Shown here in pieces: positions 21,520-52,149 of a stretch of DNA of 64,000 nt. This stretch comes from Marsupella aquatica (lineage: Eukaryota; Plantae; Marchantiophyta). The notes under the pieces are model-generated. The model saw only the letters and a program-made list of their open reading frames with translations. It made no database searches and was not told the origin of the DNA. The stretch is taken from positions 11,696,828 to 11,760,827 of the forward strand of contig OZ316894.1 in NCBI GenBank assembly GCA_973895155.1, read 5' to 3'. The stretch's first letter is position 1. Every line of letters begins with the position of its first letter. A program made the translations under genes and the position numbers.

Positions 21520-24500
21520 GCGGCAGGAGCGCTTCCAGCATGAGAAATTCTTCCTATATTAACCGCTCTCACAGACAAGAGAGCACTGCTGCAGATCCAC
21601 ACACACACGACGATCTCTCTATCTCACCCAAACAACGACGCATTAAACCTCGTAGTGAGAACCCGCACAAACCACCATCCACCGAAAAAAGTGGTCCCTC
21701 GTATCAACACCTCCCCACAACATCTCAATCCCACATCCCTCGATTCACCGAAGTTTTTCCCCAATAAAACCGCGAGAAATGTGCTTCCATCCGAGTCTCA
21801 AACTCCCCAACCCCACCGAACTAGTCACTCAAACCCTACCCCGCGATGACGCCCCTCCCCGAGCGTGAATCTTCTCACCCCGCCTTCCTTTCCGTATCTT
21901 CAAACGCACGAAAGAAAACACATCGCCAGACAGCAAGCGGCAAAGACCCGTCGTCAGCAGCCGGCCGTATCGAGCATGTCGCAAACGCAGCAGCGGTAGT
22001 AGAAGCCAGCGACGATGAGAACCTATCAAAAGAGCGAGCAATCGATCGATAGCCTCGGCGGTGAAGCAGCAGCAGCAGCAGCAGCATCAGCAGGCGAGCG
22101 GGCGGACACTAACCAGTAGGCGTCTGTCTACACAACAATCTGCCTCGCAGACTATCCGCATGACCTCCGCAATCAGAGGCCCAGCCCAGCCACCATCACC
22201 ATCGATACACTAACAGACGCACAACGAAAAATCGCACATCCAAGCCACAAAACCTCTCTCCCTTCTGTGTTCTCTCCTCTCCTCTATGTATCTCTCTCGC
22301 TCTCCGTGTCTCTCCCTGGAATGACGCAAAGCTGCTGGTGGCATGTAGGCAAGAACAACCAAACGAAAGAAGCCGCTTCTCCAACGAAGGGAGGGAGCGA
22401 AGCAGACGGGGAGGGGAAGAGGGAGCCGAGAGGGCGGCGCCAGCGAAACCACGCACAGGAGCCGATACGAGGCACTACCGAACAAGAGACGGCCGGGCGA
22501 GACCCAAGGGCCAAAATACTCGGCCACATCGAGTGGCGACAAACGGGCGGGCCAGGCCAAAGACAGGCAGAGACCCGACCTGACCCGACCCGACTACCCG
22601 AGCCTGGACAGGTCTACCAGTAAGGCAAGGACGGACCGACCGGATGGTAAGAAGGTACTGTAAGGGGCGGGTCGGTGGCCCGTCAGGGTGCCAGCGCAGC
22701 CTGAAACCCAGTAAGCACCACCCACTCTTACACACTGTAATCCTTGGCGATGACACATTGGATTGTGTAACTACTCATGTCACTACTACTCATTTGCCCC
22801 CATCCAAGCACCTACCGCAATAAGATACACGTAACCACTCTACGTTTTACTCTCGACATTACTATATACGTTACTGTCTCGCAGCTCCTTCATATTCCAA
22901 CGCAATTTTGGGTCCGTTATTGCCAATTCGGAGCTCCTTCATATTCCACGCAGTTTCTCCGCAGCCACACCACACGGGATTAATTATGATTTCAAAATTC
23001 TCTGACAGCCGAGCGGAGCCGCCGATCCCGTTCCTGCGCTCTCATCGACGATGGATATCGAGCGTCCGCATTATGCAATAGTTGGGCTCGATGATGGAAA
23101 TGGAAAGTGTCCCGACGTGATAATTATTCAGTTAAATGTGATTCCTGTACGGCACGTACGGGCAATATCTACCGCAAGATGAGGAAAGGTCGGCTACCAC
23201 GAACGGTAATTTCAGGCCGCCGATGGTTCCACGCGTCGTTCATCTACCATCACAACTGGGTCCCAATGTGGCCCCCACGCTGGTGGCCCCACGCGGCGGC
23301 TTCTCGGCAGATCCCATCTTCTAAAGTACGACAGTCTTACGCTATTTCCGGTTGCATAAGTGCCATGGCCGATGTCGTTCCCGAAGTGGTGTTATTTTGA
23401 GTTCTGATACCCCAACCTGAACTATGCAGGCTTATCTTAATCAAGAAGATATCTGGATCATTGATCTCCTCGCTACACCGAGGCCAGTGGAGAGCGCATG
23501 GAAATTACCCACCTCGGCGTTATTGTGCAACACTCCGCTTAGGGTCCATAAAACGTACAGCCCACTTTATCTGTTATCTCCATTTTCGGGGTCTCGTTTG
23601 GAGTGGATTTAACAATCAATTTTCCAAAGATTGGAGCTCCATCGTTGGGTTCTTTTTCTGTTTTGCTATTGACCCCATGCAAAGCTCTAAATTCCCTTGA
23701 AGCACTTGCAACCACATCAGTATTATCCTTAGTTTACGCAAGAAGGCAAAAAAAATTAGTCAAACCCCATAACTGAATAACAATTGAAACCTGAATATAA
23801 CACTTGAACTAAACAAAGAAAAAATAGGCGAAAGAAAATAACCTTTGTAATATCAGTGTTTCTGGTATTTTTTTGAAATCTGTTTAATTGGAAAAAAAAA
23901 TTGAAATAAATATGGATAGAAAGAAATTCTTCAGCAATTATAACATTTACCGAGGTAACAATGAAACCCTTTAGCTACTATGGGTAGAGGAGTAATAAGA
24001 GAATGTAAGAATCACTTCAATTTCTATTCTTGTCAACGTAACATTTACCAAGATAATATAAGAAAGCCTTTGGCGACTATGGACAGAGGAGTAACAAGAG
24101 AACATAAGAAATCCTTCAACTTCCGTGCCTGCCCTGTAGTCCATGACTTTGGCACCAGACTTCAATTAATGATTTTGCATCCATAACAATAGCAACACCT
24201 AAAAAATGGAAGTTACAGCCAGGGCATATGTGGCACCAGCAACATCTATTGCAATTTCTCAATGGCAATTGCCAACAAACAAATGGACAGGATTGGATAC
24301 GGTGCCCAGAAGAAGGATGGCTCCAACTTGTTGAGCAAAATCAAGAATACTTAAGCTAGGGGTCCTCAAACTATTTTTCCTTAAACGACAGGACTCCCAG
24401 TTTATTTCAATCAGCCACCTCTGCAAGGACCAGGAAAGGCAGAGAGAAGCCGAAGCCAAAGGTCAATGCGTACAACAAAGTGCCATAGCACCAAACCCCA

Positions 24501-27580: not shown

Positions 27581-28106
27581 TCCTGTTTGCTCATCGTTTT
27601 ATTACTTCATTCTGTCTCGATTTCATTTCAACTCAATTTGTGGGCAGAAGTGCTGTTGTTTCTTGCCCTTCTGCTTGCCCGGAAGATGCAGAGCCTGTGC
27701 TGCCATTTGTGAGCATTGCTTGTGTTCATTCCGGGGTTCATTCGATTCTACTGTGGCCTGGGTGGAGTTCCCGGTGCAATACTCTACTCGAATTTTGGCT
27801 GGAGTTGAGGCTGCGATTGATCCTAATCAATTTTTGCTCAGGTTTGTGCTTCATTTCTTTTGCTATTGCTGCCATTTTTGTTCATAGAATTTCAGCAGCA
27901 AGTTGCTGCAATTTCAGTTTCTCATATGTCTATGTTGCGCTCTCTGCTGTGAGGATTTCAGTTGTTGCAAGTGCTGTGAGAGTTTTCGGTGTTGATCCTG
28001 CTATTTTTGCCGTGACAACAGGGTGTCATTTTCAATTTACATTCTTTGCTAATGTTGGGCAAGAGCAGCAAGTGACATTGAATGTGATTGTTCTTGTGTC
28101 AGGAAG

Positions 28107-28505
28107 ATGGCACCGACTAGAAAATTGAGAGCCATGTTGACTGAAAATGGCAATGGGATCTACAATTTGACCTGGCAGGATCCTAGTGATGTTGAGGGCA
28201 CTCCACCCACTGTCCGGACTGTCACTCTGCAAGAGGTCCTTGCTGATTTTCCAGATTTTTGTACCGCAATTACAGAGTGTCACAGTGATCTCAACCCTGT
28301 AGTCCCAATTGAACAGTTGATCATGTGCGCTGCATATAGTTATGTTGAAACTGTCATGAGAAGGAAGAGATACCAAGTCTACACTCACTTGGCCTACATA
28401 GCAGGGTATGCCAAGAGAACTAAGTTTCTTGAACCTGTTGAAGCTTCTGTGAAAGCAACTTGGCATGATGAAGGAGAGGAATTCGTAGGATTCCTTGCTA
28501 ATTAG
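28107..28505 (+). CDS. KolX-like accessory protein of a Kolobok transposon (resembles the P2X7 ballast/Nanor domain), 132 aa
   Basis: C.AITE.H..L..V ... RRKRYQVY...GY.KR..L...V...VKATW....EFVGF resembles the recalled pattern CIT.H..F...R..AY...G.R..LP.CV...IR..FP...Y.GF. It lies convergent to the transposase. Confidence 0.6.
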   Translation: MAPTRKLRAMLTENGNGIYNLTWQDPSDVEGTPPTVRTVTLQEVLADFPDFCTAITECHSDLNPVVPIEQLIMCAAYSYVETVMRRKRYQVYTHLAYIAGYAKRTKFLEPVEASVKATWHDEGEEFVGFLAN

Positions 28506-29560
28506 GGATAGAGTGGCTTCTACCATACTTCATGTTTTTCTTTCAATGTTTGATATGACTAATAAAGTTTTTTGCAGAATACAACTCCTGCTGGTTGGCA
28601 GCATAAGGGGTTCAATTCCCCTTGGGAGTACATGTTACATCAACACAATAACAAATTTGCATGAGAAATACTTTGTTCTATCTTACTTACATTCTCCCTA
28701 GCTTGTATTATCTTCATTTCTTCTTTCCCAAATGTCGCATTTCTCAAAAGTTGGTAGTATATCCTACAGCACAAGAAAGGTCCTCCTCCAGTCTATTGTG
28801 CATGTCGACCAAACTACTTTTCTCACCAAACACTAAGTGTTTCATGTTCAAACTGCAAGATTTCCTTGTACTGATGGGTCATTGGGGTCGGCACCCTGAA
28901 AATTTGCCTCATTGTAGTCTCTAAAATGGCACTCTATAGTCTATGAAATGACACCCATAAAATTTTGCTCATTTCTCTAAAATGACACTCTGAAATATGA
29001 AATATTGTTCCACCACAATAAACACTTCACATTTGTTTGACCACAACAAGAACTTCATAGTTACAAGATCAGTCACAAAATAACACCAAAAAGACAAAAT
29101 AAAAATTTCCAATGTTCATAGCTCTCATATGAGAGTCAAAAGCTCCATCCATAGCTCTTGCCTTCAGTCCCAACACTACTGGTGCGAGGTCATCATTTTT
29201 CTAGTCAGGTCTCGGCCCTCCTCAAGAGAATCACCCCTACAACAATGACAACCATTTTAGAGGTAGTTACACAATGACAACCATTTTACAGCCATTGAAA
29301 TGATATCTATTTCAATGAACTAATTTTATTATTTGTCTATACTCACATGAAGTATGTTAGCCGAGGTCTTTTATGGAGGGTTGGCACCACTCCATAAGTA
29401 CACTGACAACTATGTTCACCATGTCTCAACCCTCCTGCATAAATCTCCCACAAAATTGTACATTATAATATTAATAATTGTCATCAACATCGATCTAGCA
29501 ATATGCTTACATTGCCACTTGTAAAAGACAATTAGCTCATCACATTACTTTACCTTGGTT

Positions 29561-32500
29561 CTAAGATGGAGGTGGAACTCCATAAATACGCTCACTCGTT
29601 CGGTCCTTCCAATTAGTGGTCCGGTCCACCAACACTCGAGTTCGACCAGGACGCTCTCTAATAGCAGTATTCACGGGCGTGCGATGGTAGACCTTCCATA
29701 CATGTCGGCGGATATTCTCATTCCAATCAAGGGCAGCACAACACAAGCGAGCCTCATGAGTAGCCGAGAAATGAATACGCTTGATGGCATACTTGCCCAT
29801 CACAGAGTGATAGGTCTCTGACATGAAGTTCTCCCGAGCCATCGTATAAAACCTCATCTTGGAAGGAGTAATATACTTCTTCATGAACTTTTGCATGGCC
29901 AAGTGAGTCTCGCCACCTACATGCACAAAACCCACTGACATTGTGAATAATGGGACCCAACAATAACACCCAAATGATATCAGGACAACTATAGTAAGTC
30001 ACATTCATTTGTACCTCGCTCATAATAACGGTCAACCTGGATGGCTCCAGGGTCTCCAAGATGCTGACAAGGTCTATCCGATAGTCTTGCACATAATGCA
30101 TGATCGCCAGCCCAATGATCGGCACAGTTTCCCAACTCAAAGGCCAACGACTCTGCATCTCCCCCACTGCCAAACAAAGAAATACTCAAAACTCTATTAT
30201 AAATGCTACTACACTTCAACCCATATGACAACAATTACACATAAAATGCAAAATTCAAGAAGTCACACCATGCATAAAAAGTTCACATACCTGGTCCTAC
30301 AGCGTCGACAACATACATAGAACCATGTCTTCAATTTTGTGGCCAAGTTATGCTGAGATAACTCTGGATACTTTTGACCACGAGTCTGAATGTGTACTAG
30401 CTCCTCATCAGGTAACCCACGCATGTCGGCAACTTTGTGGACCAGCCCCTCCTTCCTAAGGGTGGAGTACCCTCTCACTCCCTGTGCTTTCAACCAATCT
30501 TGCAACTTTTTAGCAGTAACCGCTTGGAGCTGAGAACGAGATGTGGCAGTATCGATGTCAATAGTAATAGTGTATGTGACGCTCACCATCTTCTCCACAA
30601 ACTTTTTGACCAGGTTCTTAGCCTTATGCCATAGGTCTTTCTGGTTCCTAATCCCCATATCCTCCACAATATTATCAATAGTGGCTTTATCATCATGGAT
30701 AACCTCTGTGATAGATATCCCTGCCTCTCTCAAACTATCCAATGCCTTTTTGGTACCCTTGTCCTCCATGTACCAGGCATTTCTCTCCTCTGGCCGAGTA
30801 ATTGTGACCATCTCAATTACTCTATTATCTTCAGTGTTGAGGATAGAGGTGGTACCATGAAAACCACTCCGAGAAGAATCCCAACGAGTATCGAGATACA
30901 ACACCAACCCTGGATCTGTGTCAAACCACACACAAGTACTAAGAATAAAAATTTAGGAGAAATTGCATCATGATACTAGAAATTTATGACTGGTCTTCTA
31001 GGGGAACTAACTTACTAACCTGTCTCAGTCGTCCGTCGATGCTGAAGCTGGTCCTTCAGCTGCTCCCATAGATGATTTTTGTCTTCCTTCCACTCTTGCT
31101 TCACAGCTGCTATCCATCCACCTTGGGGTCGCCCACGACCACTCTGAAAGTCATGCCAATGACCCGCAGTAGGGACATGTAATCCTAGGTGCGAGGTAAC
31201 AGAAGCCAAGGATGTGTAGGTCAATCCGGAGCAAAGGGTAGAATGATATAACTTGGGAGTAATCATGGGGGAACTCCTCCCTGGCTCATTGTCACCTGTA
31301 ACAAAGGTCCAACCATGTCCATCCACACCACAACCAATGCGAATTGACCATAACTGATGCAACTCCCTAACACGCTCAACTATTGGAGTCCTCAAACATC
31401 CCTGTACATGACATCGAGGGAGTAGCCGATCAACAAACGTAACCAGTAAATGGCGATCAAAAAACCCTACTGTAGCTGGCCGACGGGGTGGTGCTCTACG
31501 AGTCGGCTGAGAGTCCGGAACTGGAGTGGGCTGAGAGTCCGGAACTGGAGTGGGCTGAGAGTCCGGAACTGGAGTGGGCTGAGAGTCCGGAACTGGAGCC
31601 GAGTGAGATTCCGGAACGGGAGATGGCTGAATGTCCGGAATTGGAGATGCCTCCTGATATAATAAATCCACAATCTTATGTCAATAATTATTTTTGATTT
31701 TTCTACAAAGTTTTTGAAAAGGTGATGGTCATGAAAGATCTCATACCTGAAAGGTATCCCCATCCACAATGTCCAAGGCCCCTAGAGCTGCAAGAGCAAC
31801 TGGGTCATCATCTTGATAAAGAGCGTCATCCTCCGCATCTGAGGCATATTGCTCCGCAATATGTTCCTCCAAGACCTCATCCTCTACTCTATCTGAATCC
31901 CCTGCCTCATGTTGGGCAGTCTGCAAATAGTACAAAGGTGAAGTTTAGCAATGAATAGAACCCTAAAAGGTTACTAAACCCTAAAGTTGTAAAGTACCAA
32001 ATTATGAGCAACACCCATATGTTTGAGTTGTGAAAAATATTGTAGTAATAATATGACTGTGGTAACCCTAAAACATATGAAATTTTTTTATTCATGTGTT
32101 GGGGTTTCTTACAACAAAACAAACCCTAACTTTGGCAAACCCTAAACTGTATTTATTAGTAATGACATATTTTCATGGATGTGAGTTAGGTGAGTATATA
32201 GGGGCTCATTACAAAACATAATTATAACTTAGCAAAACTATGCTCAATTGTCATAATCCAACCCTAAACCATAAAATGGTGAAATTGAAGGAAGGGGACT
32301 GTTGGCCGAAATAAAATAGGAACACATGGATACATATATGAATGACACCATAAAAGAGACAATTGTACCTGAAGTGGTGGGCGTGAAGGCTGGCCACGGT
32401 CATGCTCAGCTGCGGCTGGAGGTGCTTCGTCCCCGGGTTCGTCCCCCATCAATTGAGTGGCCTCCGCTATACGCCATGCACGGAGTTCCTCAACCCCAGG

Positions 32501-32749
32501 TCGCGAGTGATCTAGTAACCATGTGACCACAGTAGAATGCGTGGTATCTGGTCCAAGCAAAGCTCTAAGGTCCTCCCACTCATCCCACCGCTCAAGTGGG
32601 ACCCGGATTTCTGGCTTGGCATCCGGTCTCCGTCTCTTCTTATAATCTATATCATCACTCGGATACCGTCGCCTGGGTGGACCACCCCCTCGTTGGGGAC
32701 GTTTCCGCCTCCCATCCAGAAGATTGGGGGGGCGCCCCCCTGTGCTCAT
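29561..32749 (-). CDS. Kolobok-type DDE transposase, spliced. Approximate exons 32749-32369, 31920-31747, 31653-31020, 30916-30291, 30168-30014, 29918-29561
   Basis: N-terminal RVPLERWDEW..L....LLD motif and C2CH ribbon CHVQGC..CGVDGH.W. Catalytic D in LYLDTRWDSS, then WYMEDKG, second D in IHDDK, QKDLWHKAKNL, NCADHWAGDH, and E in MSETYHSVMGKYAIKRIHF...ARLCCAALDWNEN. GT-AG boundaries visible. Confidence 0.75.
31500..31650 (-). repeat. 24-bp coding tandem repeat (PVPDSQPT, about 6 copies) in the transposase
   Basis: GGCTGAGAGTCCGGAACTGGAGTG repeated in frame. Confidence 0.9.
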
Positions 32750-33121
32750 ACTGTCCTATCCTAACACCACCCTGTGAAAATGTACCTAAAACCTAAAAAT
32801 AAAACCTTACATATGAGAACTAGAGACCGGATGCCAAGCCCAACCCGGTGAACAAACACAAAATTACACAAAACAATGCAAAGTCAAAAATGGAGAGGAA
32901 GAAAAGGAAGGAGCACTAGACCTCTTGGAGTCCACTTGTGAGTATGACACCCCAACCCTCCCCCCCTACCAAGACCCCCTCCTCCCTCCTCCGTTGTCCT
33001 CCCCACCTCCCCTCCACGGCTGATCACCTTGGCTGGAACAGAAACCCTAATCCCATGCTCTGGCCGCCACATTTTTGACCCCATAGAGGGGACTTTCCCA
33101 AAAAACAATGTCACATGAACT

Positions 33122-35779: not shown

Positions 35780-36137
35780 GTCCCACTCTCCAAAAATTGC
35801 ACATCAGGTGCAACAGTCCGGTAATTGTCACACCATTCTGAGTAGTGTAGTAGTATATCATGCTATTAGAGTATGTATGTTTGGTATGAGTGCTATTGGA
35901 GCCGATAAGGTTCCGTCAGGTTTGTGTGAGAGGGTACTTCTCACTTGTGAGGCATTGAAAGGTCATCTTTCAATGTTGAGCCTTGGAGAGAGAGGAGCTT
36001 GAGTGGCTATGGTGGCTGTGAGCTCCGCTTGTGTAACGTGGATTCCTTGAGTAGTGCAAGGTGCGTTGGCTTGACATACGTGTGTGATCGGATCGGTTTG
36101 TAGGGTAGAAGAGATAGCCGATGATTGCTATTTAACA
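35780..36137 (+). mobile_element. LTR 3' portion of an unrelated element truncating the DNMT-bearing polyprotein
   Basis: Ends GCTATTTAACA exactly where the minus-strand coding character stops. The 5' end is not defined. Confidence 0.4.
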
Positions 36138-36276
36138 GTAGATTGAGCAGTCCCTTCCTGCTCAACAATCTGTCCATAGGTCCATGGACTGTCTGCTCGC
36201 CCCAAGTTGTGGTCAATACTGTCTCAATGGACCACAAGCTCACCAAGGGACAATCAGTAATTCCAGCAGAGCGCAT

Positions 36277-37302
36277 CTACAATTGTTCAGCTACTCCCAA
36301 GCTGATAATCCAAGTCAAATAATTCAGGTCCATTGCTTGACCAAGAACCTGGCGCCGCAAACCCTCTGACACAAAGGCAACTGCAGTGGTGCCAGTCAAA
36401 AATCCCATAGCACGCTCTCTCTCATCAGCAGTAGGCTCCACTAACTGCTGGACAGCTGTGTCCCACACAAGTCCAGGGCCACCTCCTCTGAATGCATATG
36501 AAGTAGAGTGGCTGACAAGAGTGGGTAATGCACAACGTGGGCGCCCAACTGCATTGACCGCTGCCAATGGAGGTCTATCAGGTTGGGTCACACCCTATGC
36601 ACGACGCCCTGGATCCAAAATATCATCCACCACTAAGGCTGGTGAGCGTGGAATGCTGTCAAATGCGCGCTTCAGCACCTCACATGGGATCAAATTGGTC
36701 CACCACAAGCGTGGACGATGTGCACGAGAACCCACACGTGCAACATCCAATAACACAGCAGGTCCAATCCAAGACCTCACTTGGTGAACACTGGCAACAA
36801 TCCGACTACGATCATCACCTAACAATGACACATTCTCCAAAATGTATGTTGGAGACTGTGTCTGATGTAGCTGGAGATAATGTAGCACCCGTAACATCTC
36901 CCAAAACAGTGCAGAGCGTGGATCATGAAGTCCATGCCCAACGCCAGCTCTAGATTGGCCCTGACATGGCCAACCAGCAATCACCAAATCAATGGGGCCA
37001 ACACGATGCAGATGATCCGCCCCCAGCAATGAAATATCAACAGGTAGTGCATGCTGATAACCACGAACAACATCCATTGGCAGCAATTGTGGATATCTAT
37101 CCACCAACATAGCCACATGTCGCAATGAGACCCTCCGTGCTGTCTCATCTATCTCCACATACAAATAACGATGCACAGGAATTCCTGCCTGAATAACAGC
37201 AGCCAATCCAGTGCTAATCCCACTAAAAAGATCCAACAAACAAATACCCTCCGGTGGATATTGCCAAGCAATAGGAGTGGTATCCAATGGTGAAAGAGTC
37301 AC
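36277..37302 (-). pseudogene. C5-cytosine DNA methyltransferase domain within a retrotransposon polyprotein
   Basis: Motifs in canonical order: I LLDLFSGIS, II YVEID, IV IAGWPCQGQS, V RSALF, VI YILENV, VIII RAHRPRLWW, IX ERERAMGF, X LGQAMD. One in-frame TAG at 36595-36597. Confidence 0.9.
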
Positions 37303-37356
37303 AGGTCCATCTGCAAGAGACTGCTCTGCTCCTGACTGTGGTGTAAAAGCATGATG

Positions 37357-38484
37357 TCATGCATCATGTACCAATCGTGCTGCTGCCTGTGGCAAGGCCT
37401 GTGCAGTGCCCCACACTGGTGGCACAACACTGCCAATAGGTAATCCTCGCATGATCTGCTCCTCATGAGACTCCTCCAATGGTGGAACATCGGCTGCATG
37501 CGCATTACCCTCAATCAAATCATCAGGTCCAGCAATTACACCACTGAATGCTGCCAAAGACAATGGTGTGGATTTAGGGCCTCCCACAGGTCCACTAAAT
37601 CTCACTGGCAATTTGCTCAATCGAGCATCTCCTGACTGCCAATCAGGTCTATATGACACTGATTCCTCCCAAAAATCAAGAATAAATCCCATGGGGTAGA
37701 GCACTGTACATCCCACCAACACATTATATGATTCTGCCTTAGTTAGGATAGCTCGCGCCTGTATCTGTGAGCTATCTGTGGTATGACCTTCCTGAATCCT
37801 CAAATCAAGTGATCTCCTGGTGATATGTTGTGTAGGTGTAGGTCCCCCCAATGAAGTCTGAATGGGAAAGGGACAATCCTCCAAATCTTCTAGACGCAAT
37901 CTCAATCCACGTATGGCAGACTTCCCCAACATCAAGGGCTGAGCACCAGTATCCAGTAACACTCTCTCTGGCTGGTATACTGCTCCAGAAGGCCCAACTA
38001 ATCGAAAGATACCACTCCAATTATCCAATGACACAACACTAGGTTTAAACCTAGTCCTCTCAAATGCAGGGCGTGCTGGTAAATCCACCAACCTTACTGC
38101 TGCTGCATGCCATGTCTCACTAGTAGCAGTAGGTGGTATGGTCTTCACTGCTTCAACACTGCAAGTTGCTTCTGCATGGGAAGCAACAACTGGGGTGTCC
38201 TCACAGAGTGTAGCTGGCAATCTGAACACTTCTACAAGACCAACTCCCAAGTTTAGCATGTTTGTCGCTGAAAATAATGGGGTGCGTACTATGGCAGTAG
38301 CCACCCCCAGTAGGGTACCTGTCATCCCTATTGTATCACTACCGGATTCTGCCAACTCACCCACGCCAGGGTTTGTCCAAACCGGGTTCATAGAGGCAGT
38401 CTGAACTGTCTCTGACAATGTAAAAGACTGAGGAAGCTTTGTCTGCCGACGTGCATCCCCTCTCTGTGGATCTAGCTCCACCAC
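37357..38484 (-). pseudogene. Retroviral-type aspartic protease region
   Basis: VLLDTGA catalytic motif and YNVLVG (YDVLLG-like). Same reading frame as the downstream DNMT. Confidence 0.85.
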
Positions 38485-40100
38485 TACTCCTCGGGCTCAA
38501 GAGCTTTGGCTGCCCCACGTGTCAAAGCTGCTGATGCATCAATATGTGCAGTGCCACACATGAATCCCATGGTGGCAAGATCTCCATCAGCTCCATAAGA
38601 TGTGGAAGGACCATGGGATGTGGAAGGTCCATAGGATGTAGATGCCCCATCACCAGAAGTAGGACTCACCTGGGAACTAGCCATGGCAGCTAGTTGTTGC
38701 TCCAATTGAGCAATCTTAGCATCCTTTGGATCTATGGTTACAGTAGGGGCAGCATCACCTCCCTGTCTCCCTGCATGTGGCATGCCACGACCACGTCCAC
38801 CACCTCTACCTCCTCCTCCTCTTCCCTGATCATGTGTATGGGATCCTCCCCTCCGTAACTCAGGGTGGAGTGAGAAACACCTATCCTTGGTGTGTCCAGG
38901 AGCTCCACAATGATCACACTATCGCTGATCAGGTGCTGATGCTCCCTCTGATCCTCTATGATCTGGGCAATATCTCTGTGCATGATCCCCACCACAGGTC
39001 CAACATCCTGACTGTTGTCCAACATAAGAGGGCACAGGTCTCTGGCTGGTAGACTCTCGTGTAGTAGGCTTCTCCCTCTGGCTCTTCCGTGCAGTAGGCT
39101 GTGGTGTAGATGTAGATGCAGCCTTTGGTGCTTCCTTGGCAAATCCGGAAGTCACCACCTTCTCATTCACCATATTGAGCTCAATACGCTCAGAAAGGGT
39201 GAAAACAACTGCTAATGTGGGATCTGCATCCCTAAGCAGAGTGACATCTCTCACTCTGCGTTGCAATTCTTTGTCCAGAATTGCATACCAAAACTGGACT
39301 GCTTGAGCCTCTGTCACTCCCTTGGTGATAGTGATCAATCTGCGCATACGAGTGTATGCCTCACGTAGACTCTCTCCAGTCTTGCGCTGGAACTCCTGAA
39401 GACCCTTCAACTTATCAGTTCTTACACCCTGATAGTTCTGCTTTAGTACCTCAAAGAATTCCACCACAGGATTAAATGCTGGCGCAACTCCAGTTCTTGT
39501 CACAATCACACCGGCAGGAGTAGCGGTGGATGCTGCTGGAGTGCTGCTGGTGGATGGTGTGCCACTCTGGCTAGTGCTGCTAGAAGAAGCAGCAGCTGTG
39601 GCAATGGGTTGGGCAGCCGCACTAGTGCTATAGGTGATGGACACGTAATTAGGCGACCAATGCTGCCTCCATGCCTCAATCTCAATCAAATGAGCCTTCC
39701 GAAACTCATGGTAGTCATCCATGGGTGGCCCCTCCAAATGCTGAAATAATCCCTTCCATGCCATGAAAGGGGTAAACAATGTGGCGTTACGCAATGTCTG
39801 CATATCGCACCACGTATCAAACTCCTGGATGAAGTCATCTAGATCAATCGTGCCAACTGCACCAAAGTATCGTCGTGGGCCCTTTGTAACCCCGTACATC
39901 TCGTCCATATCCCACAACAAAGGTGCAACCACCTGATGATGAGGAGAACTGGTCACTGAGTCCTCATCAGAATCACTGTCTGAAGCTGCACTGCTGACTG
40001 CTACCAATGCTGTTGGCCGAAACTGTGCCCCACTCCAAGTGAAACCGGTCCGTCGTCCATCGGGTAACCCAGCAGCACCAGAAGAATCCGTGGTGACCAA
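38484..40100 (-). pseudogene. Ty3/Gypsy Gag with two zinc knuckles
   Basis: Capsid-like DLDDFIQEFDTW and FQRKTGESLREAYTR. Knuckles CWTCGGDHAQRYC and, after an in-frame stop at 38919-38921, CDHCGAPGHTKDRC. The 38783-38484 ORF is in the same frame. Confidence 0.85.
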
Positions 40101-40172
40101 CCCTAACCTAATCTATGTGCTAACCCTAAGGGCAATCTGTCCCTATCAACACCACAAGCACTCACCATGGTG

Positions 40173-41395
40173 TGTTGGACATCACTCCAACATCACCAGG
40201 AGAGAAATACACAGCATACTAGAATATCCGGTTGCAAACCCGGATCACTCCTATGGAATCAAGCGCCCATACCGAACCAACATGGCGCATAAACAAGAAA
40301 CAAGTGTGGAGAGTATCCAATCAACAAGAATAGTCAAACACTAACTCTCCACACCAAGAGTGATCACACATTGATCAAACAAATATTCATAATGTTCAAT
40401 GAAAGGCCTTCATAATAGGCTTCATGATGTCCCAATGTTATAGATGAGAAACCATGCAAAATTGGTTCAATCTGTGTATTTAGATGAACTCAGAGCTATC
40501 AAAAACCTCTAAAGAGCCTCTGATTTGGCCCGAAACAAGGCTCTAAGCAAACCGGAAAGTGTATAAAGCCCCCTGGCGTTTGAATCTAAACAACAAGTTG
40601 TGAAAACTTGTGTGTACACAAGGTGAGATGATAACTTGCCAGTTAAGCGCTTGTGGCTAGGAATAGCCCCGGGATGGGTGACCTCCTTGCGCTCGACCTC
40701 GTGCTTTCCCTCGCGCTCACGACCTGGAATAGCCCCGGGATGGGTGACCTTGACCTCGCGCCTTGTGCTCACGATGGGTGACTTTGCGCTCGTGGTTGGG
40801 AGCACTTTCGGGATGGGTGACCTCACGCGTCGCCTTATGCACGCACAGTTGTGTGTGTACACAAAACAGAAGTCGTCGGGCTCAGAAATGGCAACATTTA
40901 CCACTCGAAAGCAACGATTTCCTTCACAAAAATGGCAACGTCGATGGCTCTTGACCTCTGCAAACCTGTCGCGCACGGTTTTGGGACATTTCGAGAGCGT
41001 CCCTTGACAATAAAACACTACGAGCACTCAAAATTCCAACAGATCTGTCCACAAAACAGTAGTGCAATACAAGCAGCAACCTTCGGCCATCTCTTTCCAG
41101 ATCCAGATCTAGACTCCGACTCAATCCAGATCCAGATCTAGACCAGATCCAGATCCAACAACGTTCAAGCTTGGCTAGAACCAGATCGAATAGCAACAAA
41201 GTACTCAAACAATAGAACCAACGATTCAAGAAACATGAATCCGTGTCAAACACAAATCCAATTGATTCGAGCTACCACGAACCGTCACTCGTCAACAACA
41301 AACTCAGACTGAGCTTCTGTCCGCACAACAGAGTTTGAAGCTCATGATCTTTCAATGTAATCTCCATAGGATCGGTACAACGATCCCGGTCAACA
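40173..41395 (-). mobile_element. Solo-LTR-like 1.2-kb element at the gag/pol orientation switch
   Basis: TGTTG...CAACA termini, internal GGAATAGCCCCGGGATGGGTGACCT repeats and TCCAGA hexamers. Flanks TGGTG and ATACC do not form a TSD. Confidence 0.6.
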
Positions 41396-44300
41396 ATACC
41401 CCATCGATCCCAAGAGATATTAGGGATTTGGTGGAGAGTTGGGAACCACAGCTTGGCCCTAAGTTAACAGGGGAGGAGAGACATCGCATGCATCGATTCC
41501 TGAAGAGTTATTGGAATTGTTTTGCATTCAGCATGAAGGATTTGGGGACACTGAAGGGCCCTGGTATTCAGATTGAATTGGCTAGTGATGCGCCAATCTT
41601 TCGTAGACCATACCGTTATAGTGACATGGAGAGAGCTCTGATTCAAAGCAGAACTCAAGATTTGTTGGAGGCTGGATTGGTGGAGATTTCATATGGGGAG
41701 TATGCATCTGCCATAGTGATGCCAGCCAAGAAGGATGTGCATGGCAATTACACAGATAGGCGCATGTGTGGTGATTACAGACCTATTAATCGCTAGACAA
41801 AATCTGATCGATATGCCATGCCCACACCTGAGGAGATCTTTGATGTTGTGGGGCATGCAAAGGTTTTTAGTTCATTGGATCTGAGGGCAGGGTACCATCA
41901 GCTTCCAATTAGGCATGCTGACAGGTCCAAGACAGCATTCTGGGGGATTGATTCTTATGGCAAAGATTGTTTGTATCAGTGGTTATTCTTACCATTTGGG
42001 TTGAAGAATGCATCAGCTGAGTTCCAGAGAGTCATGGATCGAATCCTTGCAGGTTTGGATTTTGTCAGATGTTATATTGATGATATTTTGGTCTATTCTT
42101 CTATTGCGGAAGAACATCAGCAGCACTTACAGATTGTGTTGGAGAGATTGAGAGCACATGGGTTGAAGCTCCATCCTGGCAAGTGTAAGTTCTTCCAAGA
42201 CCAGATTGAGTATTTGGGCCACACTATATACCCAGGGGGATTGGGTGTATAACAGACTAAAGTGGAGGCCATTACACAGATTCCTTGTCCTACTGATGTG
42301 AGTAGAGTTTGTGCATTCTTGGGATTGGCGAGCTACTACAGGAGGTATGTTAAAAGATTTAGCCAGCTTGCTAAACCTTTGACCATACTCACTAAGTTGG
42401 ATCAGGAATGGATTTGGGGTGATGACCAAGAGTATGTCTTTCAGGAGTTGAAGCAAAGGTTGGCATCATCCCCTATTTTGAGAAGACCCATTTCAGGCAG
42501 ACCATTTCAGCTACACACTGATTGGAGTGGAGTAGGACTTGGAGCAGTGCTGACTCAGAAGGATGATGAGGGGAATGAGTTTGTTGTGGCTTATGCCAGT
42601 AGATCAAACAATTCAGCAGAGGCTAAGTATAGCTCTTATGAGGGAGAGTGTTTGGCAGCAGTGTGGGTTGTTGCACACTTTCGTTGCTACTTATTTGGTA
42701 ACCCCTTCACCTTGATCACTGATCATCAGCCTCTTAAGTGGTTAATGGAGTCTGACAAGCTTACAGGGAAGCTTGCACGATGGGCATTGTTGTTACAGAA
42801 GTATAATTTCTAGGTGGTGCATAGGCCTGGAAAAGTGAACTTGGATGCAGATGGATTAAGCCGCAATCCATGTACCAGTCAACAGGATGAGACTGGAGCC
42901 AGATGGCATGATGAGTCAGATAAGGAGATGGTGCCAAGATGGCATGCATCTGCCTTTCTTTGTTGGGTGCCAGCATACAGTGGATCTGTGGACTCTACCT
43001 CATTGGATGGAGTGGATGATGAGTCTTCAGATGTGGATGTTAGTGAGGTAACTACTGGACAACAAGATATTCACAATGATGTGAGAGTGTTGGAATATCT
43101 GCGCAGTGGTTCTATTGTTGGCAGTGTTGATGCCAAGGAACGTGACAGGGTTCTATAGAGAGCCAAGAGGTTTCGATGGGAGAGAAACCATCTTTTGAGA
43201 GTACTACATGATGGTAGAGTGTTGGTGGTTCCAAAACCATCACAGAGAGTACATTTGGTGCGACATGCGCACGAGGAGTTGGGTCACTTTGGTGTAAAGC
43301 GCACTTACAGCTTGCTGCAGACACAGTATTGGTGGCGTGGTATGCACACTCATGTCCAGCAATTGATAGCTAAGTGTGTGGTATGTGATAGAGTGAGAGC
43401 ATCATTTAATGCTCCCACTCCCCAGTTGCACCCGTTGCCGATCATGGGTTTGGGATATCATTGGAGTTTGGATTTTGCTGGTCCATTACCTCTTACCCAA
43501 CGTCATAATCAGTATGTTTTGGTCATGGTAGAGCACTTCTCCAAGTGGATTGAGCTAGTGGCGTTGCCAGATAAAGCCAGTGGAGGAGTTGCTGCTACAT
43601 TTTTGGATCGTGTACTCAGTCATTTTGGAGCACCAGCTGAGGTGTTGACTGATCAGGGAACTGAGTTCCGTGGAGAGTTTGAGAGTTTGTGTGAATAAGC
43701 TTTGATTGATCATCGTACTACCTCTCGTGATCATCCTGAGGCAGATGGATTAGCTGAGAGAGTTGTGCAAAACTGTGAAGAGAGGATTGCGTAAGGATGG
43801 CTTGCAGGTTGGTCATCTGGGAGATTGGGATCTCCAGCTACCTTGGTTAGCTATGGGCTACTGTTTTAGTCGGCAAGCATCACTTGCATCCTTCTCACCT
43901 TACTTTTTGCTCTACAGTAGAGAGCCAAATTTGCCAGCAGCTATTCGTCGTGATGTTGCATCAGTTGTGAACTTGGATGATCCTGATGTTTGGGTCAAGG
44001 TGTGTTCAAAGAGAGCACGGGTATTTCAGAGAGTGATGCCCATGGCTTTCGACAACCTTGCCATTGCCCAACATCGTGATACTTTGAGGTATGCCACTAT
44101 TCGTGGAGGAGGTTACCGTGCAAGCATTCGGCAATTTCATCCTGGTGATTATATTTATTTGCAGCAGACAGCACCCATGACACTTGATGTGACCGCAGGC
44201 CAGACAATCTTACGTGTGCGTGAAGTGTTGGCTTCTGGTGTCCTGATGTTGGAGGGACGCGATGGTATGGTTTGGAAGGATCATGTGCGCAATTGTGCAC

Positions 44301-44509
44301 CATGTCACCTTCCCAACATTGATGGTACAGTAGATCCAAGCTTGGCACATGTTCGTGCTGGCTTGAAATGTATGTTGTGTGGATCAGCTCAGGGAGCAGC
44401 TACTATGTTGATTTGTGATAAGTATTCTAGAGGATGGCACATGTCATGTTTGACACCACCATTGCAGGTGATTCCTAGTGGATCATGGTTGTGTCCTCAG
44501 TGTCGGTGA
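41396..44509 (+). pseudogene. Ty3/Gypsy pol: RT - RNase H - integrase - PHD finger
   Basis: RT: RMCGDYR, LDLRAGYHQ, PFGLKNA, YIDD. RNase H: LHTDWS, YEGECLA, TDHQPL. Integrase: H-H-C-C and D(LDFAG)-D(TDQG)-E(LAER). C-terminal PHD CMLC..LICDK[Y]..WHMSC..WLCPQC. Five in-frame stops and one frameshift near 43763. Confidence 0.93.
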
Positions 44510-44671
44510 AGCCGACTAGTTATCATTTGTGTTCTCTTGGCAGATATGGATTGCAGGTAGGTGATCGATGGGGCTCACTTGCACCCGGCCTCCTGATCTT
44601 CACATCTAAAAAGGTGTATATCAACCTTGTAGAACTCATGGCTAGCTAGAGTTAGGGGACCTTATTCCCAG

Positions 44672-45400
44672 TTAGGGGGGCGATTGTGGGTTTTGGACAT
44701 GTGTGGACATGAGTTCCACTTGTATTCCATTCTCTTGTGTTTGTGATGTGGCAGTGTGACTATGTCTGGATGTATGTGGCAAGCGATGTATGTTGTGTAG
44801 CGATATGTATGCGCACGACATAATCAGTTTGTGTAAGAGCAATAGGGTGTATTTTTTTCTTGACTTGCTTCTAAGAATAGTAGGGTTATAGTATTATCAT
44901 GTACTCCATAGAATGACGATAATGGAGTTAGGGTAGTTTAGGGTCAGATTAGGCAAATTACAAGCGCGTGTCATGACTAGATTGATCCACATGGCACCTA
45001 TGGCTAGAGTTTGGGGTTAGTCATGGATTAGGGTAAGTGGGTGGGGTTTGGGGGGCCTCAACTTTAAGGGGTTGACCAAGGGTTAGCTTGAATTTCTATG
45101 GACGCATTTGACTGAAGCCATCTCCCTCCACTCTCCCTTGCCACTGCCCCATGACACCCGAGCTGTTTTCCTCCACTCCCCCACCACAGGCCCCTCCAAA
45201 GTGTCTTCTTGCATGCAGACAGAGCCTTTCCATGAACAGATCCTTTGTTGGTTTAAGAGATTGTGTGCAAATTGTTGCTTTCTTGAACGGTTTCTTTGCT
45301 TGTCTAGTGGAAGCTTCAATAGGGAGCTGAAACTTTGCAATGTGCTAGAGAGGTGGTGTTGCTCTTATTGATTGAGATTGTTGCTATGTTGTGAGAAGGA
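44672..45400 (+). mobile_element. Polypurine tract and start of the 3' LTR of the pol-PHD element
   Basis: TTAGGGGGGCGAT followed by TGTGGG at 44685, about 170 bp after the pol stop. The LTR end is uncertain. Confidence 0.55.
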
Positions 45401-45727: not shown

Positions 45728-46049
45728 TGTTAGGAATTTACTCTTAGGTCTAGAGTTACGACTGCACCCAACGTAGTCAGGCTAACCTTACTCGCGGACT
45801 TGGTTAGGTTAGTTGCATTGCACATCGTATATACAAGCTGGTGTTTGCTTGTTAGAGAGCCAGTTGAGAGATAGAGAGAACTTGTGTTACAGAGTCTTGG
45901 TATGGCCGACTGACCTAGTCTACAATAAAGCTCTTGTGTGTACCCGTGAACGTAGCCTCATATGAGGTAAATTACATATCTCTCTGTGTTGACTACTTGT
46001 TCATTGGGTATCTATGGGCATGTCTTGTGAATGTCATCTTTGCTCAATA
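45728..46049 (+). mobile_element. Solo LTR (family A)
   Basis: TGTTAG...CTCAATA (CA changed to TA) with TSD ATTTT on both sides. Colinear homology to 820-1163. Confidence 0.85.
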
Positions 46050-47672: not shown

Positions 47673-50600
47673 GGGTCATGAGATACGTAGCCGGCCTAAT
47701 CTAGGCCTTCCCTTGTCTTCCTCTCCTTCTGGTTAGGTATGTTTGGATTCCGCAGCCGGAATGATCCCCAATAGGCTTGGTTAAGCCGCTAAGACCTCTC
47801 TCAGCTCGACACATCCAACTCTCACTCCCTTGCTTACTTTCCTTCCTTCTGGTTGATGTGGGCACTCTTCACACAAGTTAATGCGACACACAAATAGCAA
47901 AATGACTCCTTCTGACTGAGTCATACCATGCACTTGCCATACAAACAGTACATCTCATACACAAGCTCTGCGAACTAAGCCGTGAGGCCAACTCTATTCA
48001 GCTCTTAGGCATGAGGAAACATGAATATACACAAGGTCACGATATGACTAACCGAGAGCTTCTCTTACTACCTGATCCCAGACCGGCTGGTGCAAACTAA
48101 AAACTTGCTAAAGAAGAGGCCCTGAGCTCCCCGCTGCCTAGGTACTTATTTTGGTAGTGGATCCGCCTAATTCTTTGCAGCGTAAGCCTAACCTACCTAA
48201 CAGTAATCTACCTGCCCGAATCTACCTATGTACAGCAAGGCAGGAGCACAAGTGTTGCTCCTACCAGTGGAACCGCAATCCCACTAAGCTAAGTGTCAGG
48301 GCTGCTCCTGGTCCTGATCCTAATCCTAAACTTGGAGATCAGCGCCCGCCCTGCCCACTCACGCCTCCTACCTCCACGTCCGCCCTTCCTAAAAGGAACG
48401 GCGCCCTTGCACCGTCATGACACCGGTGGTGGATCCTCAATGGACGCCCCCAATGCTTCCTCCGCAACCACTACCGTTGGTCTGTCCTCTGACAGATTAC
48501 CTGCCTCTGACCGAGTCAACTTTTCATCGGCCTGACTAGGCCCACCCTCGGCTTCGGCATCGGCTCGGGAATCATTCTCGGCTACGGCCTCAGCCTCGGC
48601 TTTAGCCATTGTCTCCCCGACCTGCTCAAGAGGTGGATCTGGGATACCGGCCTCATTACTAAGTAGTTCGGCTTGGGCCGTGCCATCCCCACCTTTGGTG
48701 ATAGCGGAATCTATTGCCGTGTTCATGCCGGAGGTTGGTGCCGGTTTGAGTACGGCTTGAGGGGTCGAATAACCTCCGTACCTCGAAGGCTTCCGCTTCT
48801 TCTTCTTCACTATCTCCACAACCTGTTCCTTCCCTTTGCCGCCAATGTCCGGCACCGGGCCGTGTGTCACGGCTGGTCCTTCGGTAATTACCACCCCTGG
48901 TAACTGGTTTGCCCCAACGGGAGATGGACCTGATGTAGCTAAGCATTTAAATACTGCGGCTTGTTTCTTCAGCCGCTCAGTTTGGTTGTCGGCCCGCCGC
49001 TGTAGGTTCTCCATCTTCCTCGTGATTTCCTCCAACTCCTCCTGGGTCTCATCCAGGTCCTTACATGCCTTCTCCAGCTCGTTTTTGGCTTCCTCCAATT
49101 CCCTATGGGCTTCCTCCAATTCCTTCTTGGTGGTAGCCCTCTTCTCCTGGGTTGCTCTTAGCTCCTTGTCGAGCTCCGCTATGACCTCAGACTCCATGTT
49201 TTTCATCTTGGCATAAGTCTGGTCGAGCTGGGCGTCCTTCTCACGCAGGTCGGCCTTGAAGCTGGCCGTCAGGAATGCAAGCTCCTGCTGTAGCGCAATA
49301 ATCCCTTGATAGGATTTCCCTAACTCGGCCTCCTTCTGCTCAAGGGCTCTGCGGATGACCTCGAGCTCTCCCTTCAGCGCCCTCTCCCTTCTGAGTCTCC
49401 GTCGTGACCCGGTTGTTGACTGCTATATGGGCCTCCTCTGCATTTCTCAGCTCCTTCTTCCATTTCTCCCTGTCCTTGATTGCGTCGGCCAATTCTCCCT
49501 GGGTCTAAGTCAGTTTATCCTTGATAATCTGATTATCAGCCTGCGCTGTGTCCAACTGCCCCTGCATGATGTTCAGCTCATGCCTCTTAATCCGCAGTTC
49601 ATCTTGGGCTTTCTTGGCCGCCCTTAGATCTTCAATCTCGGCTTCCATCCTCCTAAGCCGCCGGATGACCTCGTCCTTCTTGCTTCTCTCTAAAGCCACC
49701 GCTTCTTCTAATTGGTGCTTCTCCAACTGCTCCCTATGGAAAAAGGGTCCTACCTCCAACTCCTCCCCAAAGATGCCGAGCGCAAGTTCCCCACATATCT
49801 CACCATACTCCATGGCTCTATTCTTAGCGTAGGTGGAGTAAGTAGAAGTGATCGGCATCGTCCATCGCGGCCTCTGCTCCCAAGCCGTCTTGCGGATCTC
49901 TTCAATCGTGGCTAGAGGTTTTCTTCCTTTTTCGGCTAGCCGCCTGATGTCCTCCGGCCAATCTCCTCCTGGAAAATCCTTTTCCCTAGCTAGGGCTGCC
50001 TCCTCTTCCTGCCTAATTCGCTCCTGAAATTCCTACGCCATCTGTTTTATGCCGTCAAAGCTCGGGGGAGCAACATCTGGTGGGGGAGACTCAGGGCTAC
50101 TCTGCTGGTTGGGGTCCCCTCATACTACCCTTGGAAGTGTGGGGATAAACCGGCCACAGGTCCTTACTCTTGGAACGTGATGGTCCGACCCATAGCCGGA
50201 GTTATCATGGCTGTAGTCCTCCACTGCCTCCTCTACTTCTTGGACTTCCGGCTTCTCCCTCTCTTCTTCGTCGGTAGGAGCTTCAGGCAATTCTGCCTCA
50301 GATTCAGAGCTTGAGACTCCCACGTACATTCTAACACCCGACTTGGATTCTGGCCTGATTCTGCTTAGGTTGACCTCTGGGGCAGTGTCCTGTATTGGTG
50401 CTGCTGCCGAAGCTGGGTCCAGTGCCGTCTTTTCCTTCTCCAGCATTTTCAGTAGATTCTGTATGCTTGGTTGCTGCATCGGCAAGTCTTCCTTCCTTGG
50501 CCTGAACACCTGCTCGATTGTAGGACTGTCAGGTGGTTGAGGCTTCTCTGCTACAGGCCTCGGTGCTGGAGCTTCCTCGGGTGCCCTTACCTACAGGGGA

Positions 50601-52149
50601 AGTACTGGGGCAAAGGTCTGACCTCTGGCATACCGGCACAATAGTGGCATGTGATAGCCAAGCTGCGACACACTCCCCGTGCCGATTACTTGCTGCTCCT
50701 CCTTTAAGATCTTCTTCAATTGGTTGAAGAGGTACCCATTGTAGTCCCGGCTTGGGTCTGGCCTCTCTGCCAGATAGACCTGTGCCTTGCCGATCTTTGC
50801 CCTCGGCAAGTTACAATGCATGGTCACCCGCAAGAAGTCGATCATCTCTCCTATGTGCGGGTTGGTGCAGGTGTTCCGGAAGAAGCCATTCTTTGTTGAT
50901 GGCCCGGGGAACGACCGGAACTCCTTGTCAGGCAAGGTCTTCCTGGTATCAACTTTGGTCTTATTGCCTATCAGCAAGCCAAACACTTCGGCAATCACCT
51001 TGGGAGTAAGATAGAAATCCTTCTCATATATCCTCGTGCAATTGGTCTCGGGTTCCCATGACCCCACGAATTCTAATAGGTCTGAATCCGGTACCTCCGG
51101 CTTCAGCCATGGTAATCTTACAAAGGCCTCTAAGACGGATCCGGCCATGAAGCCTTGGTACTTCTTGGTCTGCATGGCCGTAAAGCATGCATCCTCCTCC
51201 CGTGCAAAATGTAGTTGCACCTCCGTTGGTAGGGTTGCCGCCCAGCCTTTCCAGGTGTCATCCCTGGTTGGAATGGCTTTAATGGGATCGACCTCCTCCT
51301 CTTCGGCTTCTCCCTGCCTCCTGCTCTGCTGCTCGGCTGGCTTCTTTGGTGCCGTCGACCTCGTTCTTTTTGCCGGGGTGGCTTCATCGTTGACGGCTCC
51401 CTTCCTCTTCATCTCGGCTGCCGTGGAGGTTTCTCCTAGCACCGTTGCCTGGGTCCACCTTTCCTTGCTACCCTTCAATTCCCAATGTATGTCGTTGCAG
51501 TTCTTGATGGCCTCTCGAATGCCGATGATTCTGTCTTCGCAAAACAAAAGATCGTCGAGCTGATTGGAAGTAGGAGTCCACAAGAACTCGGCCTTGATGA
51601 GTTCGCCTCCTAAGAAAGCCGTCTTCTGCAGCTCCCACAATCGAGCGAGCTCCTGTCGTTCTCGAGCTGCCCTTTCTGATTCTTCGTCCTTGTAAGTCTT
51701 GATGTACTCAGTTGCCCGTTCGAACAGGCATCCCCAGAAATGTGCCGCTTGATTGACGTTGCTCATACCCTCCTTAGGTCGATCGTCGGTATCTACTCTC
51801 TCCCCGAGTGCTTGCCTAAGCAGCTGACAGTAGTTGGCCTCCCGTAGTCGTCTGCCTAGTTCGTGCTCGCAAATGAGCCACCATCTCCTGCAAGCGCTCC
51901 TTACCCCTCTCGTCTTCCGGTCCTTTCTCCCGTTGATCCTTCCTAGCCGCCGATGCTTAGCGCGCCCTAACCCTAATCTTGTCTTCACCCCCAGCGTCCT
52001 TACCTCCGGCCTCGGCCCGGGTTCCATAGTCGCCCCTAATTGTTTATATTTTCCTTGTTTTGTCCCTATACTAAGGTGTTTCTAGGGTGCACTCCTGCTT
52101 TACCCACTTAACTGGCCGAGTGATTCCTGGCTAGGCATCACAATGACCC
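47673..52149 (-). mobile_element. 4.5-kb element with imperfect inverted termini carrying one long decayed ORF
   Basis: Left end GGGTCATGAGATACGTAGCC versus reverse complement of right end GGGTCATTGTGATGCCTAGCC. Sharp GC-content boundaries at both ends. Confidence 0.6.
48415..52027 (-). pseudogene. Transposon accessory ORF of about 1200 codons: plant-transposon-protein-like segment plus long coiled coil
   Basis: ORFs starting at 52027, 50509 and 49858 share a frame, with a frameshift before 49206. LLEFVGSW...FYLTPKVIAEVFGL resembles plant retrotransposon extra-ORF domains. Heptad E/K-rich C-terminus. Confidence 0.55.

Follow-up and report, generated by a model that had tools for sequence, protein, structure and literature searches.

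The closest described system to the element reported here comes from an alga. In the part of their paper available to us, de Mendoza et al. (2018, PMC5890265) describe KnitGypsy-Dnmt3, a Gypsy retrotransposon of Klebsormidium nitens that holds an intronless, non-permuted Dnmt3-type DNA methyltransferase (DNMT) in its Pol open reading frame (ORF), has a DIRS-like repeat layout and is under purifying selection; the capture is presented there as specific to the K. nitens lineage. The same text describes SymbioDIRS-Dnmt3 and other split-direct-repeat DIRS elements, with a Dnmt3 domain and repeats laid out as A-coding-B-A-B. The accessible portion of a 2025 paper cites such elements for streptophytes and dinoflagellates alone, as reported in 2018 (PMC12344493), and that of the REXdb text contains no PHD, Marchantia or methyltransferase lineage (PMC6317226). 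Here we analyze a 64,000-nucleotide stretch of the genome of the liverwort Marsupella aquatica (contig OZ316894.1, positions 11,696,828 to 11,760,827; hereafter, the window), in which a decayed Gypsy element encodes a Dnmt3-type domain. Comparison of the proteins indicates that this family is probably kin to the KnitGypsy-Dnmt3 lineage. Its hosts are land plants, whereas that of KnitGypsy-Dnmt3 is an alga.

Two halves of one element

An earlier reading of the letters by a model (the original prediction) had recognized, on the minus strand, gag with two zinc knuckles, an aspartic protease (PR) and a C5-methyltransferase. All are present: a frame at 40112-38484 (minus strand, one premature stop) holds Gag and two CCHC knuckles, and a second at 38496-36277 (minus) holds the protease and the methyltransferase, with stops at residues 380, 634 and 740. 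Beyond what had been predicted, Pfam finds a reverse transcriptase (RT), RNase H (RH), integrase (INT) and PHD finger on the plus strand at 41437-44509, and these are the rest of the same element. Thus, the two halves form a single decayed Gypsy element with an internal inversion. In relatives, Gag-PR-DNMT-RT-RH-INT-PHD are collinear, and the window matches them once the inversion is undone, giving the Gypsy domain order GAG-PR-RT-RH-INT. The plus-strand half is 63% identical to Marchantia model P0014, which also contains the DNMT, and shares 71% DNA identity, reaching 44820, with DNMT-bearing loci (L-numbers denote loci from a metagenome scan, P-numbers related proteins). Because repeat A starts at 35826, repeat B runs to 44820 and both outer ends adjoin an identical 4-bp sequence, we read the copy as one insertion that contains an inversion. 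It spans 8,995 bp (35826-44820), of which ~36090-41406 (~5.3 kb) is inverted; codon count puts the two ends of the inversion in phase. The copy is dead. Its parts, in window coordinates, are:

35822..35825, plus strand: left copy of the 4-bp target-site duplication, identical to 44821-44824
35826..36089, plus strand: 5' terminal repeat A, first 264 bp, starting with TG (score 118 when aligned locally with L043 repeat A, compared with a shuffle mean of 65.5 and maximum of 93 in 200)
36086..36094, no strand: left inversion junction with two GATC sites, from junction comparison, approximate to the base
36122..36130, minus strand: conserved stop of ORF1, TAG CAA TCA (UAG-CAR-YYA), the predicted readthrough site (weak alignment of the last 15 residues of P0004, as far as 36131, E 7.2)
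36131..36291, minus strand: spacer between DNMT and conserved stop, with a premature stop at 36279-36277 and a frame change near 36175
36292..37266, minus strand: Dnmt3-type C5 cytosine methyltransferase domain, predicted from sequence and model, with the catalytic Cys codon at ~36966-36964 and a premature stop at 36597-36595
37597..38121, minus strand: aspartic protease region, DTG intact at ~37953, premature stop downstream at 37359-37357
38877..39005, minus strand: two CCHC zinc knuckles, separated by a premature stop at 38921-38919
39123..39914, minus strand: Gag core, likely start Met near 39908
39915..41336, minus strand: inferred 5' untranslated leader, placed by analogy with relatives between repeat A and gag
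41337..41409, minus strand: likely rest of repeat A (CA end) and right inversion junction, GATC at 41406-41409 (length 264+73 against ~340 bp; the alignment is not significant, score 55, shuffle maximum 64.5)
41437..42870, plus strand: reverse transcriptase and RNase H (Pfam RVT_1 1.5e-31, RT_RNaseH 6e-36), three premature stops
43186..44323, plus strand: integrase of the DDE type (H2C2 finger, rve core), interrupted by stops and shifted in frame near 43770
44324..44509, plus strand: C-terminal PHD finger (Pfam PHD 2.8e-9) and stop of ORF2
44672..44684, plus strand: polypurine tract; the same G-run precedes repeat B in 11 of the 11 loci compared
44685..44820, plus strand: 3' terminal repeat B, TG...CA (74% identical to repeat B of L043 over 44742-44820)
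44821..44824, plus strand: right copy of the target-site duplication, identical to 35822-35825

When the minus-strand frame was translated with X at its stops, Pfam returned DNA_methylase at E 1.5e-9 and weak matches to Retrotrans_gag (E 0.05) and the protease (E 0.069); Gag is 53%, and PR-DNMT 56%, identical to Marchantia P0008. Relative P0004 aligns to residues 1-705 of the window frame at 75% identity across one single frame, and so PR-DNMT has no intron, as had been predicted. The prediction also placed protease, methyltransferase and spacer in one shared frame. This is correct for the ORFs ending at 38496, 37356, 36594 and 36276, which are separated by three stops, and fails at the end of the spacer: there, homology in that frame extends only to ~36175, and the true ORF end is the TAG at 36130-36128 in the neighboring frame. 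Past ~36090 the minus strand crosses the inversion junction. A programmed gag/pol frameshift near 38490 was considered and rejected; as P0008 and L038 run from Gag to DNMT in one frame, the frame change there is decay. Within the leader, at 40660-40830, we also observed short repeated units with GGTCACCCATCCC.

A canonical pair of identical long terminal repeats (LTRs) was sought in the window and not found; the ends are the unlike repeats A and B. Relatives also have two dissimilar TG...CA repeats, A of ~340 bp and B of ~115 bp, arranged as A-coding-B in five of eight copies, including the window, and as A-coding-B-A-B in the other three (L025, L043 and L058, all complete), while L050 retains the 3' part of the longer layout. 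The longer layout, joined to Gypsy domains, resembles that of KnitGypsy-Dnmt3 and also the repeats of SymbioDIRS-Dnmt3; the shorter form could arise by direct insertion or by B-to-B recombination. DIRS elements differ in their tyrosine recombinase, as the accessible text has it, whereas a DDE integrase, TG...CA termini and target duplications of 4 bp characterize the window family. All eight copies with both ends placed show the duplication (those without a locatable end were left out), and in three of the eight the first dinucleotide is mutated. TG...CA ends with a target duplication of 4-6 bp are those of Ty3/Gypsy elements. There is no tRNA gene in the window, and inspection by eye gave no obvious tRNA primer site 3' of repeat A. 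Among loci with a repeat A, none has a same-strand B upstream of it. The B-A and A-B junctions of L025, L043, L050, L058 and L019 read CA, two bases, TG and resemble joined integrase ends, and a lone repeat B in reverse orientation lies upstream of gag at L009:6311-6423 and L010:6321-6433. Troyka LTR retrotransposons, considered for their atypical Gypsy-like ends, were set aside: the available text describes them from animals only, with CG...CG ends and 3-bp duplications, and mentions neither a methyltransferase nor a PHD finger (PMC12440569).

Both inversion junctions fall at GATC, which raises the possibility that the 5.3-kb inversion was introduced during assembly. GATC is the cut site in common Hi-C protocols. 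Against this, it is a frequent sequence (35 sites lie within the segment), the inversion ends share short inverted microhomology, and two other loci likewise carry an internally inverted piece: at L032:12650-13546 and L033:4923-5819, RNase H is cut off by inverted 5' pieces of the element itself, with the 4-bp duplication kept. We regard an artefact as a distinct possibility and a genuine inversion as the better account; the family-level reading is unaffected.

The methyltransferase domain

The motifs of the domain, which we take to be motifs I to X of the C5 enzymes, occur in canonical order (FxGxxG, E, GWPCQ, ENV, RxR, ER/GF, LGQ), and the catalytic PC, ENV and RxR are invariant or almost so among relatives. 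The complete fold with an intact catalytic PC, as originally proposed, is therefore borne out, as is the exclusion of DRM, whose motif order is permuted, and of CMT, since there is no chromodomain insertion. We also rejected a host plant DNMT3: its DUF3444 and introns were not found, and DUF3444 is absent from every relative scanned. A search of solved structures with the single sequence placed DNMT3A at the top (1e-12) and DRM much lower, with no DNMT1 or CMT among the matches. Using a profile of 25 sequences, DNMT3A scored E 4e-24; the next group reached 3e-13, DRM2 3e-9 and HhaI 2e-9. An AlphaFold2 model from 75 sequences (pLDDT 96.7) had DNMT3A as its best Foldseek match (E 6e-20, TM 0.73/0.84), and an ESM Atlas search returned generic DNA_methylase clusters only. 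By profile and by fold, then, the nearest solved relatives are DNMT3A/B/C, and the domain is modeled as a complete Dnmt3-type fold, a family assignment that the original prediction had not made.

The ratio of nonsynonymous to synonymous change (dN/dS) in the DNMT was 0.12-0.16 in seven of ten pairs, all seven between lineages. These values lie below the ratio of 0.2 taken to mark purifying selection, and by this measure the domain is under such selection. The remaining three pairs, which count against it, were 0.46 (a close pair), 0.24 and saturated. For RT, dN/dS was saturated in five of nine pairs.

If the domain were a single processed insertion of a host DNMT3 into one Gypsy copy, other copies should lack it. 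Its Dnmt3 type fits such an origin, and bryophytes possess a host DNMT3, according to the part of that report we could access (PMC6453930). A search with the protease region, however, gave 12 matches, and the DNMT was present in 12 of 12. Searching with the DNMT among longer proteins gave 28 matches; those that carry a species name belong to Marchantia polymorpha, Calypogeia and Sphagnum. One metagenome scan gave 69 loci, several of them near-duplicates; these were chosen by their DNMT and are therefore uninformative on copies without it. We built paired trees from 61 elements with both domains, leaving out redundant cluster members and most moss loci; no host DNMT3 was among the sequences. 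The 15 elements whose DNMT precedes RT group as one clade in the DNMT tree (0.996) and in the RT tree (0.944), and DNMT and RT distances are correlated (Spearman 0.77 over the 61 elements, whose pairs are not independent). Together with the absence of DUF3444, this spread across families refutes a one-off insertion. What we find supports a methyltransferase that is carried by a land-plant Gypsy lineage as part of the element, lacks introns and keeps the canonical motif order, as opposed to a host gene that was captured. The original prediction had said this too, while calling the methylase a pol domain; that part needs revision, as the DNMT closes the Gag-PR ORF and a stop precedes RT.

The stop between methyltransferase and reverse transcriptase

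Judged from the reading frames, the Gag-PR ORF of this subclade closes with the DNMT, and RT lies beyond a conserved in-frame stop. Both boundaries (DNMT end and RT start) could be located in 42 loci; 31 of these are in frame, and 30 of the 31 contain an in-frame stop. In 39 of 43 loci, the final stop ahead of RT is 15 or 22 codons away and has CAR directly after it; the four exceptions are two doubled stops, one insertion and one TAC. Among stops attributable to decay, the most recurrent is found in 13 of 54 loci. Across the spacer of five loci, stops number 1-2 in the coding frame and 4-11 in the other two. Locus L038 reads through 1369 stop-free codons, then TAG CAG TTA, then 1047 codons. 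In full-length models from Marchantia and Calypogeia, the protein ends 78-82 residues past the DNMT, which, in a comparison of protein models only, is the position of the stop in a large moss family. L038 (976-8226) appears to be an intact element, with two ORFs, one stop, a polypurine tract and a B-A junction, and L040 resembles it with one frame change.

The sequence at this stop suggests how RT may be made. UAG-CAR-YYA occurs exactly in the window, L007, L038/L039 and L040, with CCA, TTA or TCA as third codon, against a background of 37 in 8543 TAGs, and the motif is conserved at the nucleotide level although the residues vary. The minus strand has one more TAG-CAR-YYA, at 40003, which lies out of frame and was regarded as chance. 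As described in the accessible text, UAG CAR YYA is the readthrough signal of tobacco mosaic virus (TMV), with 6-10% readthrough in plants (PMC2754532), and a TMV-type context works with all three stops in plants (PMC13517186, likewise seen in part). The likeness to TMV type I readthrough extends beyond the nine bases, since a polymerase lies downstream with its ORF in frame; the difference is that the window family is a retrotransposon and its predicted site falls between a DNA methyltransferase and RT. Murine leukemia virus gag-pol readthrough is a further parallel. So is the reported readthrough into env in SIRE1. Rice gypsy elements are cited, in the portion available, as readthrough candidates (PMC2754532). 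KnitGypsy-Dnmt3 differs in having its DNMT within the Pol ORF, and the accessible text makes no mention of a separating stop, readthrough or target duplication (PMC5890265).

We consider it likely, from this conserved context, that the stop is read through. Several observations weigh against that reading. Only 4 of 43 loci have the exact CAR-YYA. In the large moss family, a single lineage whose 35 loci are partly redundant, the context is CAA-CCC or CCT, one mismatch away, with ATG next in 34; in one copy, L045, a TAC codon replaces the stop. Moreover, an in-frame Met lies upstream of RT in four of six loci checked (L003, L039, L040 and L041), the distant same-order relatives P0038 and P0201 are fused without a stop, and the annotated Marchantia and Sphagnum models P0013, P0014 and P0029 skip the stop, as splicing would. 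The same two ORFs could, then, yield RT-integrase if the stop were spliced out or translation restarted at a downstream ATG, such as the one three codons past the stop in the moss family or the Met before RT in the four loci just named. Ogre elements are reported to use splicing. Two-ORF Gag-PR / RT-INT layouts occur in other plant LTR groups (PMC6317226, in its accessible portion). We find this route unlikely, since L007, L038 and the plus side of the window have no in-frame Met before RT (the first is at codon 48, 117 and 27, respectively), every lineage preserves the frame across a spacer that is otherwise open, a constraint that an intron would not impose, and the motif is held at the nucleotide level while residues change. 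Readthrough would leave the DNMT upstream of a stop passed at a low rate, and its abundance would therefore be capsid-like.

A stem may form ~12-18 bases 3' of the stop. Its fold z was -2.7 in L038 and -3.0 in L040, against -0.6 in L007 and L003. The duplex of each arm with its own partner was best in four of eight rows, and other RT windows paired equally well or better in seven of eight. As the arms were picked after the folds were seen, we treat the stem as suggestive.

Range of the family and a proposed cycle

An unindexed search with the DNMT gave 241 clusters at E<=1e-30. The best 150 of the 241 representatives comprise 61 with RT/RNase H before DNMT, 16 DNMT-integrase fragments, 14 with protease before DNMT, 6 DNMT-RT and 53 unplaced, one of which, the Klebsormidium protein P0103, turned out to be protease-DNMT. 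Organism names covered 30 proteins; the named algal hosts are Scenedesmus, with DNMT beside integrase, and Closterium and K. nitens, with DNMT after protease. An RT-RH-DNMT-INT-PHD architecture (L059, L060, L061; P0062, P0064 and 59 other representatives; Scenedesmus named) is commoner among distant relatives, some of which add a G-patch (P0089, P0104, P0140) or have two PHD fingers (P0131). From these domain orders, the DNMT seems to have changed place within the polyprotein. The 241 clusters, with named hosts from Scenedesmus to Sphagnum, suggest an old green-lineage capture rather than a Klebsormidium peculiarity. This departs from the K. nitens-specific capture presented in 2018, as relatives here include Scenedesmus, Closterium, liverworts and a moss.

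P0103 (GAQ93235.1) has the order zinc knuckle-protease-DNMT and shows 37% identity over the DNMT; from its species and domains we infer that it is a KnitGypsy-Dnmt3 copy. It ends 12 residues past the DNMT, and the record is marked partial. In its clade, P0103, P0123 and P0174 (with P0114), the first three end 12-13 residues past the DNMT, which hints, at the protein level only, at a conserved stop there as well. A fast DNMT tree of 62 sequences joined Klebsormidium, Closterium and bryophyte elements with an SH-aLRT support of 92; it held one K. nitens protein and no host DNMT3. A further green-lineage Gypsy polyprotein with a PHD finger, Gypsy-7a_cRei of Chlamydomonas, was compared by description only, and the domain list in its figure legend differs in having no methyltransferase (bioRxiv 2022.06.16.496473, seen in part). 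We found no report of a land-plant DNMT-Gypsy or of its readthrough stop in the literature; Repbase, subscription papers, the supplementary trees of PMC12344493 and the figures of PMC5890265 may already include bryophyte sequences.

On balance, we favor a model in which ORF1 of this Gypsy family encodes Gag-PR-Dnmt3 and ends at a likely leaky stop, so that the DNMT would be packaged at capsid-like abundance and methylate new cDNA. Most ribosomes would halt after the DNMT and a few percent continue into RT-RH-INT-PHD. The protease would then free the domains, leaving particles with DNMT at about the level of Gag; such release and packaging are, in our judgment, quite probable. The DNMT would methylate the element cDNA, probably at CG by analogy with the Dnmt3 of SymbioDIRS, a step on which we are evenly divided. 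Finally, the integrase would insert the product via its TG...CA ends, perhaps guided by the PHD finger. The purpose may be disguise as host chromatin, or self-dampening. Within the window, the CpG observed/expected ratio is 0.31-0.34 in the element ORFs and 0.46-0.86 in four other regions, a depletion compatible with such methylation.

Two points speak against cDNA methylation by the element. The loss of CpG is equally explained by host methylation of transposons, and KnitGypsy-Dnmt3 was inactive in yeast, a result its authors call inconclusive in the text available (PMC5890265). That inactivity would also suit a domain kept for binding, or for another substrate such as RNA or the host target site, as would a capsid-level abundance that exceeds the catalytic need for one cDNA. 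The DNMT also stands beside integrase in most distant relatives (RT/RH before DNMT in the 61 of the best 150), which fits action at the insertion site. We think a role of this kind improbable, given that the catalytic PC, ENV and RxR are nearly invariant, that the nearest folds are DNA enzymes and that the Dnmt3 domains of SymbioDIRS methylate CG de novo, as the accessible text reports (PMC5890265). Extending the favored cDNA-methylation model, we suggest more tentatively, and with doubt somewhat outweighing conviction, that an ancient green-lineage Gypsy clade, inherited vertically from algae to liverworts and mosses, shifted its Dnmt3 from the integrase side to the Gag-PR end with a TMV-type leaky stop, such that particles with many active methylases would write 5-methylcytosine on cDNA before DDE integration via split repeats.

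Elsewhere in the window, 2390-3139 (plus) encodes a complex I ESSS subunit (weak Pfam), and 16246-21558 (minus) a BAH/Agenet protein. One exon of the latter matches Calypogeia fissa from end to end at 81% identity, compared with 45-54% for Marchantia, mosses and lycophytes, and thus points to a leafy liverwort as the likely host. By eye, 58881-61849 (minus) is likely a peroxisomal multifunctional enzyme. Fragmented ORFs at 28000-32800, without a clear Pfam match and with a 24-bp tandem repeat at 31476-31667, look by eye like a decayed DNA transposon. ORFs of 496, 175 and 335 aa at 48418-52081 (minus), of coiled-coil character and with no significant Pfam family, possibly represent another mobile element. 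A 200-bp dispersed repeat occurs at 961-1161 and 45849-46047, with 79% identity between the two, and part of a third copy lies near 25928.

Why retrotransposons carry an enzyme that normally silences them has been unanswered since 2018, partly as the hosts are hard to handle. The question becomes testable because long Gag-PR-DNMT models with intact motifs exist in the genetic model Marchantia polymorpha (Mp4g09160, P0008). Many bryophyte gene models annotated as 'DNA methyltransferase' are such elements, and LTR finders that require two identical LTRs would likely miss them. If TMV rates apply, the conserved stop predicts about ten times as much DNMT as RT, which favors action in or from the particle. 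If the model is correct, a retrotransposon would arrive already methylated in the genome of a model land plant.

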